From assembly GCA_965262715.1 (NCBI GenBank), contig OZ253553.1:2752001-2816000 (forward strand): a stretch of DNA of 64,000 bases, given 5' to 3'. The stretch is from Bdellovibrionales bacterium. GTDB lineage: Bacteria > Bdellovibrionota > Bdellovibrionia > Bdellovibrionales > JAUICD01. How positions within the stretch are numbered: position 1 is the stretch's first letter; every line of letters starts with the position of its first letter. Positions 1-64,000 of the stretch are shown one piece after another. Made by a program: the position numbers.

Positions 1-3000
1 TATTTTATGAGCATTATAAAGACCCAAATAATAGAAAGAAAAAAGAAGTTTTTGAGAAAGCAAAGGAAAAAAGGAAGGGCTTTTAGAATAAAGAACCACT
101 TTGTTGTAAAATATTAGCTTTAATATTTTATTTTTATAAGTGTCGACTTAAAAAAAAATGTAAAAGAAAATATGTGGCAAAAACAATTAAGTATCTATCA
201 TTTTACAAGGATAGCTTTTATATTCCGTCTTTATTGGCACTTGCTTTGAATTTGCAGGACTTCTTTTTCTGAAAGCCCTGTTGCTTTACTTATGGCTTGT
301 ATATCCATATCAGTTGTTTTTAGAAGATTTACAGCAACTTTCTGCAATCCTTTCTGCAATCCTTCCTGTAAACCTTTCTGTAATCCTTTCTGTAAACCTT
401 CCTGCAATCCTTTCTGCAATCCTTTCTGCAATCCTTTCTGCAATCCTTTCTGCAATCCTTTCTGCAATCCTTCCTGTTGAGCTTCTTGCCTTATGCGATC
501 TCTCATCATTTGTAATGCTGGCATTGTTCTTTTCTCCTCTGATACATTCTTTTCTTCTATCTCTTGTAAAATATTCCAAGTAAAGCTTGGATCACAAAGT
601 CTCACACAATCAACAGCCCTTTCCATTAAAAAGATACGGTCTTCTTTATTAGCAAGCTTATTGGATAACTTAAACAAATCTCCAATGATCTGCTCATCTA
701 AGTTCCATACACTTTTTAGTATAAACAAAATCGTCCCAGATAGCAACTCCTTTGAGCTTAATTCCGCTATTCCTAAATCATTTAAGTTTAATAATCTATA
801 CTTATAATTTAAAACATTCTCACCAAAAGCCTTTTTAAGCTCTAAAGACTTAAAATTCAAATAATCATGGAAACTCAAAGGCAAATTCCATCCACTTTTA
901 CCAGAGTAAACCAACACAGGGATCACTATGGATGGAGCTTTACGTTTTCCACTCTTAACATCTTTACTGTCTTTCTCGTAAATACTTGTCTGATACTTAA
1001 GAAACTGTAAAAAAATATCTGAGTCATTATAGGATTTATGCTCAAAAAGGAAAATAATTTCTACAATCTCATCTGAATTTTTCATCTTCACTGAAAAAAT
1101 CACATCAGCTCTCTGCTCCCTAAACACTTTATCTACAAAGACAGTCACTTTTGACTGTAGAGTTTTCCAATCAAAAAGATCAAATTCTTCAGGAGTTAAA
1201 ACCAAACGAAACAGGTCTAAGACATACCGCTCTTTGCTATAAACTTCATAAAACAAATGATTGAAAATGTGAAAAACTTCACGTTTCAACTCTTGTTTGT
1301 TTTTTGGAAATTTTGTCTTTTTATACTTAGAGTTTGCCATCACAAAACCTCTTAACTGACTATGAACCTTATTAAATGTAAAATCCTTAATCAAATGAAA
1401 ACTTCTACTTGCATCATAACTTAATTTCAAAAATATAAAAAAATACTCATCAAAGCCTCTCTAGATAAATCCTTCTACAACAAGGCCTCTGAAAAGTACA
1501 GTTCTTCGAGTCCATATTTCATTAGAAATGAAATGGTAAGATATTAGTTTTTTAAGACTTTGTTTTGCTTTCTCTAAAAAAACAGTATTCTCTCTAAAAC
1601 TCTCATATAAAATCTATTGTTTAGATTTTTCTTGGAGTTTGAATATTTTTTCTTTTGAGAAACCAGTGATTTCAAGTACTTTTTCTACACTCATATCAGC
1701 ATGTAGAAGCTTTAATAAAATTTTTTCGATTTCTTGCCTTCCTTTTTTGAAGACCTCTTCATGAATTTTGAGGGCTTCTTCACGGACAAAGTTTTCTCTA
1801 CTTAGCCCTATCCCTTTTCTTTCTTATCAATTGCTTCTAAATATTCTCTTAAAACCTCATCTTGAGATAGGTTCCAAAAATGTTTCACTGCTTTTGCCAT
1901 ACTTTTTCCTTTTATATTTCCCTAAGCTTTTCTAACTCTTCCTTACTCAGTTTTGTAGAATCAAGAATAACTTGAATATCAATCCCATTTTTTAACATAT
2001 TTAAGGCGACTTTCTCTATCCCTTTTTCTATTCCTTTCTGTTGTCCTTCTCTTCGGGCTAGATTTTCTGCGCTAATTCTATCTCTTTCTCTTTTATCAAA
2101 CGCATCTATATATTCTTGTAAAGCCTCATCTTGGGATAAGTTCCAAAGATGTTTCACTGCTTTTGCCATATCTTCTCCTTTATTTTCCAAACTCTTATAT
2201 TCAGTATCATTCATTTTATATGAATTCTTTAATAAATAACACCATGACTCTCTTATATCATACAATTGCTTCACATTTTTATCAAATTTCCCTAATTCTA
2301 TGATAACAAAACATAATCCATTTGACATTAATACATGAGGAGGAGTGATCCGACAAATGTTACAAATATGGTGGTAGTCTTTAACATTTTTAAATTCTTT
2401 TAAATTCTTCGTTATGAAAACTAATGAGTACACGGGAAGTAACTTATCATAATCACTACCTTTTTTTAATTGTTGAGAATAAAGCCTACATGCATATACC
2501 AATGCTCTATCTGTAAAATAAGGTTTTGATACTGTTTGCATCTCTACATTTACAATCTCTGTTTCCTGGGTACCTGATTGTGTGTTCCTTTTTAAATGCA
2601 TTCTCAAGTCGAGAACAAATCTTCTACCAGATTCTTCACCTTTTATAACAGAAGGAGTATCAGGATGAAGATCAGGATCTAAAACGTCTACTTTTATAAC
2701 TTCTGAATGTTTTGGAAGTGGCAAAAAATGTGTGAGTAGTGATTTTAAAGCTTCTTCATTGCCTTTAAAATAGGTTTTAAAAGCTGCGTCATTTGTTAAT
2801 TTTAAAAAATGAGACTTTTTTAAAAATTCCTCAATATCTAATAACTGATGTTGATTACTTGAACCCATAATTTATGCCCTCCTAAAATGAAAAATCTAAT
2901 AGGAATACAAGCAAAATACATGCCAAGCTAAAAGCAGGAATAAACAAAGTTTCAGATTTAAAATACAAGATATTGTCCAACAACTTGGACATCGAATCCG

Positions 3001-63000: not shown

Positions 63001-64000
63001 ATCCTAAAAAATATTGTCGAGTCACTTCTGATAAGAATAAATTTACTTTAAAATAAAGCAAGTAAAATTAGTGCTTGAACAAGCAGAAACTTTATCCCAT
63101 AAAGAAGTAAAATATAAAAATTTTATCCCATCAAATAACTTAATGATGATTTTTATAATAATTAAAATCTCTATTGGAATTTTAATCTTAAAGTGATACA
63201 ACTCTTAAAAAGTATGCCTAAACTACTAAAAGCACCTACTGTTTGGAGTTAAAAGGTTTGATTATGGTTCAATATGATGAGCAAAGAAAAAATCAATGTG
63301 TCTATACATCAACTGATTTGGTGAATTTTTTAGGGTGTCATCATGCAACCTTTCTCGATATTGAAAGCCTAACTGATAAAAAGCTATCTAAATATCTGAA
63401 AACTTCTAAAAGTAATGACTCCATAAAAGATCTATCGCAAAAAAAAGCTATCAAATATAAAAATGCCTATCTTCAAAAACTTAAAAGTAAAGGTAAAACT
63501 ATTCATCAAATCCCTGTTGATCTTAGCTTGAAAAAACGTCATGACTTAACAGTAAAGGCTATGAAATCAGGTCAAGAAATGATTTATCAAGCTGTCTTAC
63601 TAGAAAAGCCATGGCATGCTACTGTTGACTTTCTTATAAAAACTCAAAATCCGTCATCTCTAGGAGATTATAGCTATGAACCTTATAATATAAAACTAGG
63701 GCATGTAGCAAAACCTGAATATATCCTACAACTATGTACAGCCTCATATCTGCTAAAACAACAACAATCCAACCTGCCTAAATACATGCGATTAACCCTA
63801 GGTGATGGACAATCAGAGAGCTTTAAAACTTCTGATTTTTTTCATTATTATTTGTATAGCAAAAAACGCTTTGAAGATCATGTTCGAAGTTTACCCAGTG
63901 TATCTGAGCCAGAACCATGCAAACATTGTAAGTCCTGTGTGTGGAAGGAACACTGCACGCAACACTGGGAACAAAACAATCACCTCAGTCTTATTGCTAA

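Follow-up and report, generated by a model that had tools for sequence, protein, structure and literature searches.

The window (the whole 64,000-nucleotide stretch of DNA that was analysed; positions are window coordinates, i.e. contig position minus 2752000) carries five direct repeats of about 1.1 kb, each a PF04754 Rpn gene on the minus strand, and a sixth lies just upstream. A blastn self-comparison of the island and a repeat search recovered all six, in the single orientation and at the coordinates given in the survey's finding.

-10097..-7055, minus strand: Rpn repeat R0, outside the window on its upstream side, interrupted by a 1.37-kb insert
231..1430, minus strand: Rpn copy R1 (PF04754), intact, 12 GLQ[E/K]-type four-residue repeats
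22704..23756 (repeat interval 22704-24367), minus strand: Rpn copy R2 (PF04754), intact, 7 repeats
32824..33816 (repeat interval 32768-33847), minus strand: Rpn copy R3 (PF04754), intact, 2 repeats
39368..40388 (repeat interval 39312-40419), minus strand: Rpn copy R4 (PF04754), 4 repeats, broken into two ORFs by a 4-nt insertion
43213..44277 (repeat interval 43213-44308), minus strand: Rpn copy R5 (PF04754), intact, 8 repeats

The homology of R1 to the other copies covers 231-1374, and its blastn and repeat-search interval is 231-1935. In 100-nt bins, the Rpn repeats are mostly 91-100% identical outside the tract of four-residue repeats. All five copies in the window belong to PF04754 (YhgA-like, Transposase_31; cut-off 21 bits), the four intact ones scoring 97-102 bits and the halves of R4 33-56 bits; against TIGR01784, R2 reaches 43.6 bits, under the cut-off of 52.1. 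The motifs RADVIF and FLFEHKS are kept in all Rpn copies and resemble the D...ExK of PD-(D/E)XK; they may be the counterparts of the RpnA catalytic residues.

The repeat unit is larger than the Rpn gene. Read along the minus strand, it consists of a PF12784 Rpn-like gene with its promoter region (T), tandem RpnS-like domains and the PF04754 Rpn gene.

1912..2868, minus strand: PDX1, intact PF12784/TIGR01784 Rpn-family gene, the upstream gene of unit U1
2723..3016, no strand assigned: T element, the 5' end of the PF12784 gene plus its upstream region
18919-19243, 29352-29517, 33849-34147, 40421-40714 and 45727-45947: other T copies
18118..19071, minus strand: PDX2, older PF12784 Rpn-family paralog with its own T-like end
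24027..27462, minus strand: four ORFs with 9 near-full and 3 partial tandem RpnS-like C-terminal domains
27570..27944, minus strand: 5' part of a PF12784 gene, truncated, cut by IS256

PDX1 and PDX2 score 111 and 79 bits against TIGR01784 (cut-off 52.1) and are separated by a dS of 1.17. The T element ends in a 42-nt palindrome-rich motif (2971-3012) made up of a 7-bp hairpin and a palindrome, which occurs in eight copies, none of them outside the island, and marks the T side of each block; within the hairpin there is one compensatory G-C change and one G-T change. The motif might be a recombination site or, just as well, the operator of a promoter. In each of the seven T copies aligned, homology stops directly after CATACAT, beside the palindromic motif, and on the other side of the unit two unrelated flank classes diverge exactly at the Rpn stop codon. 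Such sharp ends are not predicted by simple duplication, so a site-directed process is possible.

The cargo between the Rpn repeats comprises type I restriction-modification (R-M) genes, a fused Hachiman gene, KAP-NTPase, PDC-S39 and Zorya type I, and every cargo block is bounded by the same repeated Rpn unit in one orientation.

4841..10502, plus strand: left part of cargo block C1 (Pfam, PADLOC; the next four lines)
4841-6469, plus strand: hsdM (Pfam, PADLOC)
6466-6858 and 7293-7712, plus strand: two HEPN genes (Pfam, PADLOC)
7705-9462, plus strand: MNT-hsdS1 in a single frame (Pfam, PADLOC)
9459-10502, plus strand: first TIR-like gene (Pfam, PADLOC)
10604..14860, plus strand: Hachiman HamA and HamB in a single 1418-aa frame (PADLOC, Pfam)
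19532..22645, plus strand: hsdR, intact type I restriction subunit (Pfam, PADLOC)
27945..29352, plus strand: IS256-family insertion (Transposase_mut)
29897..32137, plus strand: cargo block C2, HEPN-MNT-hsdS2 in one 746-aa frame (Pfam, PADLOC)
32328..32765, plus strand: hsdR 3' remnant attached to R3, 96% identical to 22212-22645
34590..38630, plus strand: cargo block C3 (Pfam, PADLOC; the next three lines)
34590-35702, plus strand: second TIR-like gene, 83% aa identity to the first
36140-36670, plus strand: Panacea-domain antitoxin (Pfam)
36726-38630, plus strand: 634-aa gene of no known family
39009..39367, no strand assigned: C3/R4 junction, where a multi-copy element of 96 nt (39009-39104) precedes an hsdR 3' remnant of 264 nt
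40761..43069, plus strand: cargo block C4, with a KAP-NTPase 5' fragment, an IS30 fragment, a 133-aa ORF and a 211-aa ORF
40761-41000, plus strand: KAP-NTPase 5' fragment of C4
41013-41702, plus strand: IS30 fragment of C4
44387..45726, minus strand: IS30-family insertion between R5 and its T element
46175-47716, plus strand: KAP-NTPase PDC-S20 (PADLOC, Pfam)
48686-50620, minus strand: PDC-S39, DUF7380/DUF4209 (PADLOC, Pfam)
51981..59571, plus strand: Zorya type I zorA, zorB, zorC and zorD, all open (PADLOC, Pfam)

Thus blastn, Pfam and PADLOC together bear out the claim that Rpn repeats separate R-M and other defence cassettes. PADLOC, which had not been run for the survey, confirms the type I methyltransferase, specificity subunit and restriction enzyme (MTase_I 645, Specificity_I 416 and REase_I 1154 bits, in open frames), PDC-S20 and PDC-S39, and resolves what had been called Hachiman- and Zorya-like genes into HamA plus HamB and ZorA-D. 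The HamA (DUF1837) model covers residues 1-253 of the fused frame and the HamB helicase model residues 269-1414; the Zorya type I scores are 122 (ZorA1), 158 (ZorB1), 242 (ZorC1) and 796 bits (ZorD1). Zorya type I is defined by ZorA, ZorB, ZorC (EH signature) and ZorD (SNF2 helicase-nuclease) in a row, and Pfam places an HNH at the C-terminus of ZorD. Cargo blocks are 2.5-19.7 kb long and have several genes each; both strands are used, and the contents include IS copies and remnants of genes. According to blastn, cargo of the same class fills neighbouring slots: the three type I R-M-derived blocks are consecutive, as are the KAP-NTPase blocks. The second and third R-M-derived blocks are without hsdM and hsdR; both target-recognition domains of hsdS2 are unrelated to those of hsdS1. 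C4 is a deletion derivative of the block immediately upstream of R1 (blastn).

Elsewhere in the genome there are CRISPR-like arrays of at least 14, 24, 16, 10 and 60 repeats. Each of the five CRISPR-Cas loci in the survey's finding has a signature gene near an array (contig coordinates below), the two type I loci being recognised by Cas3 only; TIGR01865 has no match in the genome.

2597598-2601737: Cas12a (V-A), 1427-aa frame, beside the 60-repeat array
1361765-1364032: Csm1 (III-A), near the 24-repeat array
2343949-2346783: Csx12-type Cas9 (II-B), near the 16-repeat array
2457920-2459143: Cas3 core, near the 10-repeat array
484965-485966: Cas3-like frame with one internal TAA, near the array of at least 14 repeats

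Neither ffh (TIGR00959) nor lpxC (TIGR00325) was found in the genome, at a completeness of 92.7%, in line with the reported loss of SRP and LPS. A genome-wide census yields 19 PF04754 and 5 PF12784 nuclease-domain matches and 60 C-terminal-domain matches, figures compatible with the 44 Rpn-family ORFs counted earlier, although the counts are not the same. Other Rpn clusters in the genome lie among pilin-like, ankyrin and housekeeping genes and not among defence genes, which speaks against a defence reading.

RpnL/RpnS features of the repeated genes

The C-terminal part of the Rpn copies is hypervariable, with 12, 7, 2, 4 and 8 GLQ[E/K] units in R1-R5; the C-terminal length of R0 equals that of R4, and both broken copies have 4 units. 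These differences are 12-nt copy-number variation within otherwise 91-100% identical DNA, and the number of units (2, 7, 8, 12) is the main difference between the intact copies. That four intact copies have four different numbers is statistically unremarkable: in a random draw from 2-12 all would differ about half the time, by our estimate. All six copies contain a candidate internal ATG (22937, minus strand, in R2) with AAGGAG (GAGGAG in R0 and R1) 9 nt upstream, and the GLQ[E/K] repeats begin 15 residues later. This putative RpnS start falls within the distance of 8-20 residues between internal Met and repeats given in the sections of Zhong et al. 2023 (PMC10400941) consulted here.

The putative RpnS of R2 is predicted to fold into one long and two short helices (3-50, 55-62 and 66-76; pLDDT 76). 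Its homodimer model scores 0.60 (best of three controls, 0.00); of 30 proteins solved as pairs of one chain, 21 attain this mark, and of 23 solved as single chains, none does. The homodimer runs have 95% or more of their contacts in common, the partner pLDDT is at least 88, and the contacts run in register along the repeat helix (residues 23, 27, 31 and 35). The model supports binding of RpnS as a helical dimer via its long first helix, and likeness to the solved RpnA-S dimer may explain the pass. Fold searches with the RpnS model returned generic coiled-coil matches and did not recover the solved RpnA-S structure; phmmer against PDB sequences gave nothing relevant.

In all six pairs of the four intact copies dN/dS is 0.13-0.19 (326-354 codons), which indicates that these copies are under purifying selection and their function is retained. 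Such ratios, together with the RpnL/RpnS toxin-antitoxin gene features, argue that the repeats are not neutral joints. With R2 as query, blastn against the genome gives 12 matches, of which 8 lie in six island loci and the other 4 are scraps of 68-126 nt at two outside loci; within the genome, the R2-type Rpn nucleotide family is confined to the island.

Judged by sequence features, the Rpn copies match the published defence system of RpnL toxin and intragenic RpnS antitoxin (E. coli RpnA-E and plasmid RpnP2; PMC10400941), and the island repeats are of this known kind of Rpn defence gene. As far as the consulted sections of that paper describe it, the likeness includes the PF04754 nuclease domain, the location among defence genes, the variable C-terminal helical domain with four-residue repeats varying in number, the candidate internal start 15 residues before the repeats, the predicted dimer via the repeat helix, multiple copies from duplications with variable ends, and stand-alone RpnS-like genes nearby. 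The same sections report that rpn genes are enriched near defence genes and spread horizontally, that rpn arrays come from direct tandem duplications whose ends vary, that a mismatch in repeat number abolishes neutralisation and that stand-alone rpnS copies lie downstream; they also mention an rpn N-terminal region fused to a downstream rpnS copy. Unlike that system, the island has six near-identical copies interleaved with large multi-gene defence cargo instead of a simple array, each unit pairs a PF12784-type with a PF04754-type gene, and free RpnS-like domains occur in runs of 9-12, fused into ORFs of 2-3 domains. The repeat here is GLQ[E/K].

Duplication, deletion and exchange between copies

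Both duplicated cargo blocks of the survey's finding were found again by blastn: -7247..-4582 matches 25293-27944 at 98.7% (earlier given as 98.4%), and 9254-10492 matches 34460-35695 at 89.8%. The RpnS-like domain block 24027..27462 is likewise duplicated upstream of the window at 98.7%. Sequence of the hsdR 3' end adjoins R2, R3 and R4 with different start points (22212, 22441), the truncated ends being 434 and 264 nt long. R1 and R5 have in common about 1 kb of another flank and an IS30 piece. The Rpn|T deletion junction is identical in R3, R4 and R5, and through it R3 runs straight into a T element. Little or no homology is seen at deletion junctions, and IS30, IS256, another IS and the 96-nt multi-copy element sit at several breakpoints; the genome has 9 other full copies of the IS256, with 99.4-99.8% identity to the one here. 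The hsdR remnants on the Rpn copies mark segmental duplication followed by deletion, partly IS-associated.

The Rpn unit does not look like an insertion sequence or transposon: its two ends are not inverted copies of each other, it is flanked by gene remnants that the copies share, and IS30 pieces form the sole inverted pair of 200 nt or more in the window, though no systematic search was made for short target duplications.

Among R1-R5, 171 of 276 pairs of the 24 informative sites are incompatible, close to the proportion of 0.6 that random splits would give. The sites show no block structure (permutation P = 0.87), and conversion tracts therefore cannot be delimited. The dS between Rpn copies is 0.07-0.25, versus 0.27 and 0.45 for cargo pairs. 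Such scrambled, non-tree-like sharing of variants, as read from the alignments, shows gene conversion among the Rpn copies. RecA is intact, and therefore the units probably provide the homology by which cargo is duplicated and lost. Cargo of the same class in neighbouring slots is the pattern expected from unequal homologous recombination between direct repeats.

Origin of the array

We consider it fairly probable that the repeats come from local amplification of an Rpn (recombination-promoting nuclease) gene family of toxin-antitoxin defence, duplicated and recombining, and are not a new integron-like device. The Rpn unit was copied with its adjoining cargo by segmental (tandem-type) duplication, after which deletions shortened the copies and IS30, IS256 and another IS inserted into them, leaving one complete type I R-M/Hachiman block, two deletion derivatives and three KAP-NTPase blocks, while the Rpn copies exchanged variants by gene conversion. 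By analogy with the E. coli system, each intact Rpn gene would give a long nuclease toxin, RpnL, and a short antitoxin, RpnS, from the internal start, and RpnS would pair with its own RpnL via the long helix, whose length is set by the GLQ[E/K] number; hence the intact paralogs, with their 2, 7, 8 and 12 repeats, would act as defence modules insulated from one another. With RecA, direct units of 1-5 kb would be ordinary homology substrates for duplicating or deleting the intervening cargo, and these changes would be a by-product of the array that calls for no dedicated shuffling machine.

It belongs to general bacterial genetics that direct repeats recombine unequally by homology and so amplify DNA in tandem or delete it. 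The island resembles such cases in that neighbouring slots hold cargo of the same class, the direct repeats are long and evolve in concert, and RecA is intact; it differs in that its repeats are defence genes whose repeat number stays different despite homogenisation elsewhere. Arrays of orphan C-terminal modules occur downstream of Rhs/CdiA polymorphic toxin genes, and here too a full-length gene is followed downstream by a series of spare C-terminal modules from its own family, which could replace its tip by recombination. However, these modules resemble antitoxin domains and are not toxin tips accompanied by immunity genes, and no displacement event was observed.

The survey's boldest reading made the Rpn repeats dedicated joints of an integron-like system that actively shuffles, duplicates and drops defence cassettes to maintain a large immune repertoire. 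Its appeal lies in the same unit bounding every block in one orientation, in Rpn copies that recombine with each other, and in the conserved 42-nt palindromic motif with its compensatory hairpin change, and, as in integrons (IntI, attI/attC, promoterless cassettes), a one-directional array places a recurring sequence between unrelated cargo with a palindromic motif at one block boundary. Yet no tyrosine or serine recombinase (PF00589 or PF00239 type) is present, only IS transposases, among the 30 flank ORFs and the 46 window ORFs scanned with Pfam (of 54 with at least 100 aa; the other 8 are nested antisense frames), and the recurring element is a 1-5-kb pair of protein-coding genes under selection. 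Instead of compact, mostly promoterless single-gene cassettes in one orientation, the cargo consists of multi-gene operons in mixed orientation with their own remnants and variable boundaries on the other side; truncated hsdR and IS debris are traces left by duplication and deletion rather than by the insertion of cassettes. The listed loose ends at the R3 borders match flanks of other reference copies; neither a variant junction nor a new joint was seen in public contigs, and no ongoing cassette exchange was seen. In a same-genus relative the Rpn orthologs are dispersed, and the only homolog of island cargo genes beside them is an IS256-type transposase. We therefore regard this reading as very unlikely; what survives of it, weakly, is the sense of homology substrates, to which the common bounding unit, the scrambled variants and RecA point.

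A different role for the nucleases would be to drive the rearrangement, with RpnL breaking DNA near its own gene and RecA-independent template switching then producing variable-end duplications, four-residue repeat expansion and free RpnS arrays. The consulted part of PMC5350276 reports that overexpressed Rpn proteins raise RecA-independent recombination and proposes a template-switch model, and the discussion of PMC10400941, as far as consulted, raises this possibility. The deletion junctions with little or no homology would fit, as would a non-defence locus at 1716-1732 kb where, by gene order alone, pilin-like genes and Rpn occur twice in the same order and orientation. Against this, RpnA cleaves without sequence specificity (PMC5350276, same part), which leaves action in cis unexplained, several junctions are IS-associated, and nothing separates the mechanism from RecA-dependent unequal crossing-over between existing copies; we hold it to be unlikely. 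Serial horizontal acquisition, in which each block arrived separately from other strains with its own Rpn as a hitch-hiking addiction module, would account for the unrelated domains of hsdS2 and for hsd parts that are 78-91% identical among the three R-M-derived blocks, versus 93-98% for the adjacent Rpn, hsdR-remnant and T parts, and would accord with the horizontal spread of rpn genes noted above. We find it highly improbable: the blocks derive from one architecture by nested deletions and have junctions in common, the R2-type family is found only in this island within the genome, and no integrase or conjugation genes were seen in the window and flank ORFs scanned.

Meaning for Rpn genes and defence islands

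If the repeats are an amplified Rpn defence family, the locus is a natural test case for whether Rpn paralogs in the same cell are kept apart by their number of four-residue repeats and possibly target different phages, a question that came up when Rpn defence was discovered; the four intact copies are near-identical except for their 2, 7, 8 and 12 repeats, and a comparison of cross-neutralisation would therefore be straightforward. The locus also shows how a large defence island can grow, a block being copied with its Rpn genes and the copies then trimmed; in one such copy hsdS2 is left over as a spare specificity subunit whose target-recognition domains are different. The newer features are the runs of 9-12 RpnS-like domains in tandem and the sharp palindromic end of the unit; to our knowledge, neither has an earlier description in the literature searched, including the consulted sections of PMC10400941. 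It is conceivable, if quite unlikely, that the whole unit (PF12784 Rpn, poly-RpnS run and PF04754 Rpn, ending at the 42-nt motif and the Rpn stop) is a self-propagating organiser of the defence island, whose nucleases and sharp ends would promote cargo capture, duplication and loss, whose copies would be insulated by drift in repeat number, and whose RpnS runs would be a reservoir of spare antitoxin or C-terminal modules. The long free RpnS-like runs and the sharp palindromic end are where a real surprise could still lie.

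Layout and cargo of the island

A single contig of 2.94 Mb (~31% G+C) contains the window (2752001–2816000). The island begins just past pdxA (~2,729 kb) and runs to a glmU-like gene (~2,824 kb). The direct Rpn repeats of the survey's finding were reproduced, in coordinates and identities, by self-blastn of the island and a repeat search, and both of its duplicated cargo blocks by self-comparison of the island. Five copies (R1–R5) lie in the window, all on the − strand, and a sixth (R0) lies upstream. Every copy matches Pfam PF04754 (Transposase_31, YhgA-like, i.e. Rpn). From left to right, the island alternates between unit and cargo, with the cargo classes KAP, R-M, R-M, R-M, KAP and KAP. 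Cargo genes were named with PADLOC and Pfam.

Rpn copies and cargo of the island (window coordinates)
7.6–10.1 kb upstream of the window: Rpn copy R0 (PF04754), interrupted by a 1.37-kb insert with an rve-domain transposase ORF
231–1430, −: Rpn copy R1 (PF04754)
22704–23756, −: Rpn copy R2 (PF04754)
32824–33816, −: Rpn copy R3 (PF04754)
39368–40388, −: Rpn copy R4 (PF04754), broken by a 4-nt insertion
43213–44277, −: Rpn copy R5 (PF04754)
Cargo: complete type I R-M system (hsdM, two HEPN genes, MNT-hsdS, hsdR)
Cargo: TIR-like gene
Cargo, 10604–14860: fused HamA and HamB in one 1418-aa frame (Hachiman)
Cargo: PD-T7-4-like DUF4145 gene
Cargo: second HEPN-MNT-hsdS
Cargo: second TIR-like gene
Cargo, 36140–38630: Panacea-domain antitoxin and a 634-aa partner of no known family
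Cargo: KAP-NTPase (PDC-S20), two genes, one just upstream of the window
Cargo: PDC-S39
Cargo: Zorya type I operon, complete

The Hachiman frame is uninterrupted and matches the HamA model at residues 1–253 and the HamB model at residues 269–1414. Two type I specificity subunits share a reading frame with toxin–antitoxin-type domains, MNT-HsdS (585 aa, 7705–9462) and HEPN-MNT-HsdS (746 aa, 29897–32137); both frames are counted from the first possible start, and separate internal starts are possible. The specificity subunits of the first and second R-M blocks (hsdS1 and hsdS2) have conserved regions in common and unrelated target-recognition domains. The 634-aa gene has no Pfam, NCBIfam or PADLOC match and is preceded by the Panacea-domain (SocA-like) antitoxin gene, with which it could form a toxin–antitoxin pair with an undescribed toxin; the pair occupies the slot that Hachiman has in the first R-M block. 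An 861-aa frame crosses the window edge (63243–63998, continuing into L003 at 2–2587) and fuses a TM0106-family RecB-like nuclease domain to an SF1 helicase. It matches the PADLOC MkoA/MkoC models and may be another defence gene. Ahead of it, at 62034–63056, are a zeta-toxin-like P-loop ORF and a small HNH ORF.

Rpn copies as probable toxin–antitoxin genes

The four intact copies (R1, R2, R3 and R5) have a dN/dS of 0.13–0.19 in all six pairs. Their proteins are 91–94% identical to R1 and differ mainly in a run of GLQ[E/K] tetrads, of which R1 has 12, R2 seven, R3 two and R5 eight. In the broken copies, R0 and R4, the C-terminal regions are equally long and hold four units if the ARQE of R0 counts as one. 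A conserved ATG lies 15 residues ahead of the tetrad run and is itself preceded, 9 nt upstream, by AAGGAG (GAGGAG in R0 and R1).

According to the primary paper (PMC10400941) and its commentary (PMC10400984), rpn genes encode a toxic nuclease, RpnL, and, from an internal start, a short protein, RpnS, which neutralises only an RpnL with an equal number of four-residue repeats. These repeats start 8–20 residues past the methionine of RpnS and make its first helix, through which it dimerises, longer (PMC10400941, PMC10400984). The presence of four different tetrad numbers in four intact copies fits a set of mutually insulated paralogs, but four distinct numbers would, by our own estimate, arise by chance about half the time. 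The Rpn repeats are probably working genes of a known defence type.

The RpnS of R2 (77 residues) is predicted to fold into one long and two short helices (pLDDT 76); the full-length, single-sequence Rpn model is poor (pLDDT 48.8). The RpnS homodimer model scores 0.60, compared with 0.00 for the best of three controls; its contacts follow the repeat helix in register, contact agreement between runs is at least 95% and partner pLDDT is at least 88. Among proteins of solved structure, 21 of 30 that are pairs of one chain reach this mark, and 0 of 23 single chains do. The model supports predicted homodimer binding by RpnS, a result that may reflect likeness to a known structure instead of independent support, because an RpnS dimer has already been solved. 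Foldseek on pdb with the RpnS model gave no match at E ≤ 0.001 and a wide VIA-align search gave generic long-helix matches only (Z ≤ 5.0), neither of them retrieving the solved RpnA-S structure; phmmer against PDB sequences with R2 and PDX1 (the PF12784-type gene beside R1) gave no relevant match.

The repeat unit and the origin of its copies

The true repeat unit extends beyond the Rpn gene. Read upstream along the coding strand, R0, R1 and R2 are each followed by a 570-nt spacer, several small ORFs in a run and a PF12784/TIGR01784 Rpn-family gene, in this order. The latter is intact at 1912–2868 and truncated at 27570–27944 (where, in the R2 unit, it is cut by an IS256 copy) and upstream of the window. 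Every unit is flanked by an element of 290 nt (T), made up of the first 145 nt of the PF12784-type gene and ~150 nt of DNA upstream of it. In R3, R4 and R5, the Rpn gene is joined straight to T by one identical deletion junction, into which an IS30 copy was later inserted in R5.

The small ORFs at 24027–27462 are a repeated C-terminal domain of the PF12784-type gene (blastp; TIGR01784 positions ~165–273), and a profile of this domain finds 60 copies in the genome, 34 of them in the island. Nine near-full and three partial copies of the RpnS-like domain stand in a row at 24042–27282, and a 98.7% identical block upstream of the window holds six near-full copies and one partial copy. Searched against 5.8 billion proteins, a three-domain ORF has 14 hits: three multi-domain ORFs of this genome (the query included), four foreign proteins of two-domain length (191–212 aa, 66–77% identity) and seven full-length PF12784 proteins. 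Single, downstream rpnS copies are already published, and the sections consulted make no mention of runs of free RpnS-like domains (PMC10400941).

Both ends of the unit are sharp. In all seven aligned T copies, the old copy at PDX2 (the PF12784-type gene at 18118–19071) included, homology stops at the same base, directly after CATACAT. A 42-nt motif that ends at this base holds a 7-bp hairpin (TGTCCAA/TTGGACA) followed by a AATCCGGATT palindrome. It occurs at 2971–3012 and in seven further copies (n = 8), in the island only, and lies at the outer end of every Rpn unit. Its hairpin variants are one compensatory A-T to G-C change (the copy at 19179), one G-T intermediate (the copy upstream of the window) and one mismatch. 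On the Rpn side, the two classes of flank diverge precisely where the Rpn gene has its stop codon. Binding of antitoxins to palindromes in the promoters of their own genes is common. A site-directed process behind the sharp ends is possible; the simplest reading is that the motif region is a promoter–operator and that the flank divergence marks one old breakpoint of duplication. In the unit with R1 and PDX1, a scan for promoters and terminators gave fewer promoter-like sites than shuffled sequences did, which makes it uninformative.

Across the genome, R2 has 12 blastn hits, eight in the six island loci and four that are scraps of 68–126 nt at two places outside. Downstream of R2, R3 and R4 is the 3' end of hsdR with different starts (full gene, 434 nt and 264 nt, respectively), and R1 and R5 have in common a flank of ~1 kb of the other type, with a 211-aa ORF and a piece of IS30. 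The second and third R-M blocks are deletion derivatives of the first: the second keeps HEPN-MNT-hsdS, and the third has retained the 3' end of hsdS, the TIR-like gene and a segment of 225 nt that is 98.7% identical to 17710–17934, with the Panacea pair in place of Hachiman. A 96-nt element (39009–39104), which may be a solo IS end or a small non-autonomous repeat, lies at the deletion junction between the third block and R4 and has at least eight other genomic copies (94–96% identity). Because the R2 family is confined to the island, hsdR ends and the R1/R5 flank are shared, two R-M blocks are derivatives of the first and a multi-copy element sits at a junction, the data point to segmental duplication of a block together with its unit and to later deletions, several with an IS at the breakpoint. 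The published rpn arrays, as described by Zhong et al. (PMC10400941), have the same pattern: tandem direct duplications of genomic regions with variable ends and with neither inverted repeats nor target duplications.

Other mechanisms were considered. The Rpn repeat was rejected as an insertion sequence: the two ends of the unit are not inverted copies of each other, its flanks are shared gene remnants, and the only inverted pair of at least 200 nt in the window consists of IS30 pieces. An invertible hsdS shufflon is ruled out by the hsdS copies, which are direct, not inverted, and 22 kb apart. Serial island insertion by an integrase was rejected because neither an integrase nor a remnant of one turned up among the 46 window ORFs and 30 flank ORFs scanned with Pfam.

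Among R1–R5, 171 of 276 pairs of the 24 parsimony-informative sites are incompatible (~0.6 expected for random splits), and these sites show neither a tree signal nor any block structure that could be detected (permutation P = 0.87). The dS is 0.07–0.25 for the Rpn copies, 0.16 for the hsdR remnant, 0.27 for the TIR-like pair and 0.45 for the KAP pair. On the strength of the incompatible sites and the dS comparison, the Rpn copies evidently exchange sequence, and their length is sufficient for them to mediate the duplication or loss of intervening cargo. RecA is intact in the genome.

Six public sequencing runs (three studies) contain the hsdR–R2 stretch as contigs, and four were compared over 29750–39100. 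Contigs of X2 and X5, which come from one sample that may be the source, agree exactly with the reference over unique cargo. Depth is low in X6 and X1, which leave hsdS2 and the Panacea/634-aa genes uncovered; this says nothing about absence of these genes. The one joint that "goes back 6540" and the compared loose ends at the R3 borders (32824, 33847) are explained by cross-matching among paralogous copies within the reference itself. The contigs compared give no direct sign of ongoing exchange, one sample being identical to the reference and the other runs too thin.

In another Rpn cluster (contig positions 1712001–1732000), an Rpn gene comes after a pair of pilin-like (N_methyl) genes at two places, with order and orientation unchanged. 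The two groups flank sbcCD, a third Rpn copy lies 5 kb beyond, and the neighbours are non-defence genes. Judged by gene order alone, not DNA alignment, this looks like Rpn-linked segmental duplication outside a defence context.

The island in its genome and clade

The five CRISPR-Cas loci of the survey hold up, with arrays of at least 14, 24, 16, 10 and 60 repeats and adjoining signature genes: Cas12a, Csm1, a Csx12-type Cas9, a Cas3 core and a Cas3-like frame. The Cas9 model TIGR01865 has no hit in the genome. The Cas3-like frame (484965–485966), near the array of at least 14 repeats, has one in-frame TAA, and this type I-F-variant locus may be inactivated. Between cas12a and the 60-repeat array (2597598–2607205) lies an Rpn gene (PF04754, 2602393–2602962, 326-aa frame). 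At a separate locus (2694823–2695324), the match to the Cas12a model covers only its first 111 and last 55 positions, and the locus looks like a deletion remnant.

On the reported reductive decay, lpxC was not found in this genome, and the ffh model TIGR00959 gives no match at E ≤ 0.001 in this closed genome. The same model has no match, not even at the FtsY/FlhF level, in this genome, its congener or two sister-genus genomes (G003, G004). It finds ffh in five of nine genomes searched, and those five relatives each also have two to three weaker matches. This apparent clade-wide loss of the SRP GTPases, in genomes of 1.6–2.9 Mb, would be remarkable if true.

The island locus is not comparable with that of the congener (G001), since there pdxA and the glmU-like flank gene are ~540 kb apart and the Rpn orthologs (65% aa identity) are dispersed over four loci. 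No homologs of the island defence genes lie beside these orthologs; the only other ORFs that the loci have in common are PF12784-type Rpn relatives and an IS256-type transposase. A search of genome contigs for loci related to R2 gave 54 pattern matches, none confirmed.

As an observation, the Rpn-punctuated defence island is real and was well described. Its proposed role as an integron-like device gives way to a further case of the published Rpn kind: the repeats are best explained as a duplicated, recombining array of Rpn toxin–antitoxin defence genes with cargo.
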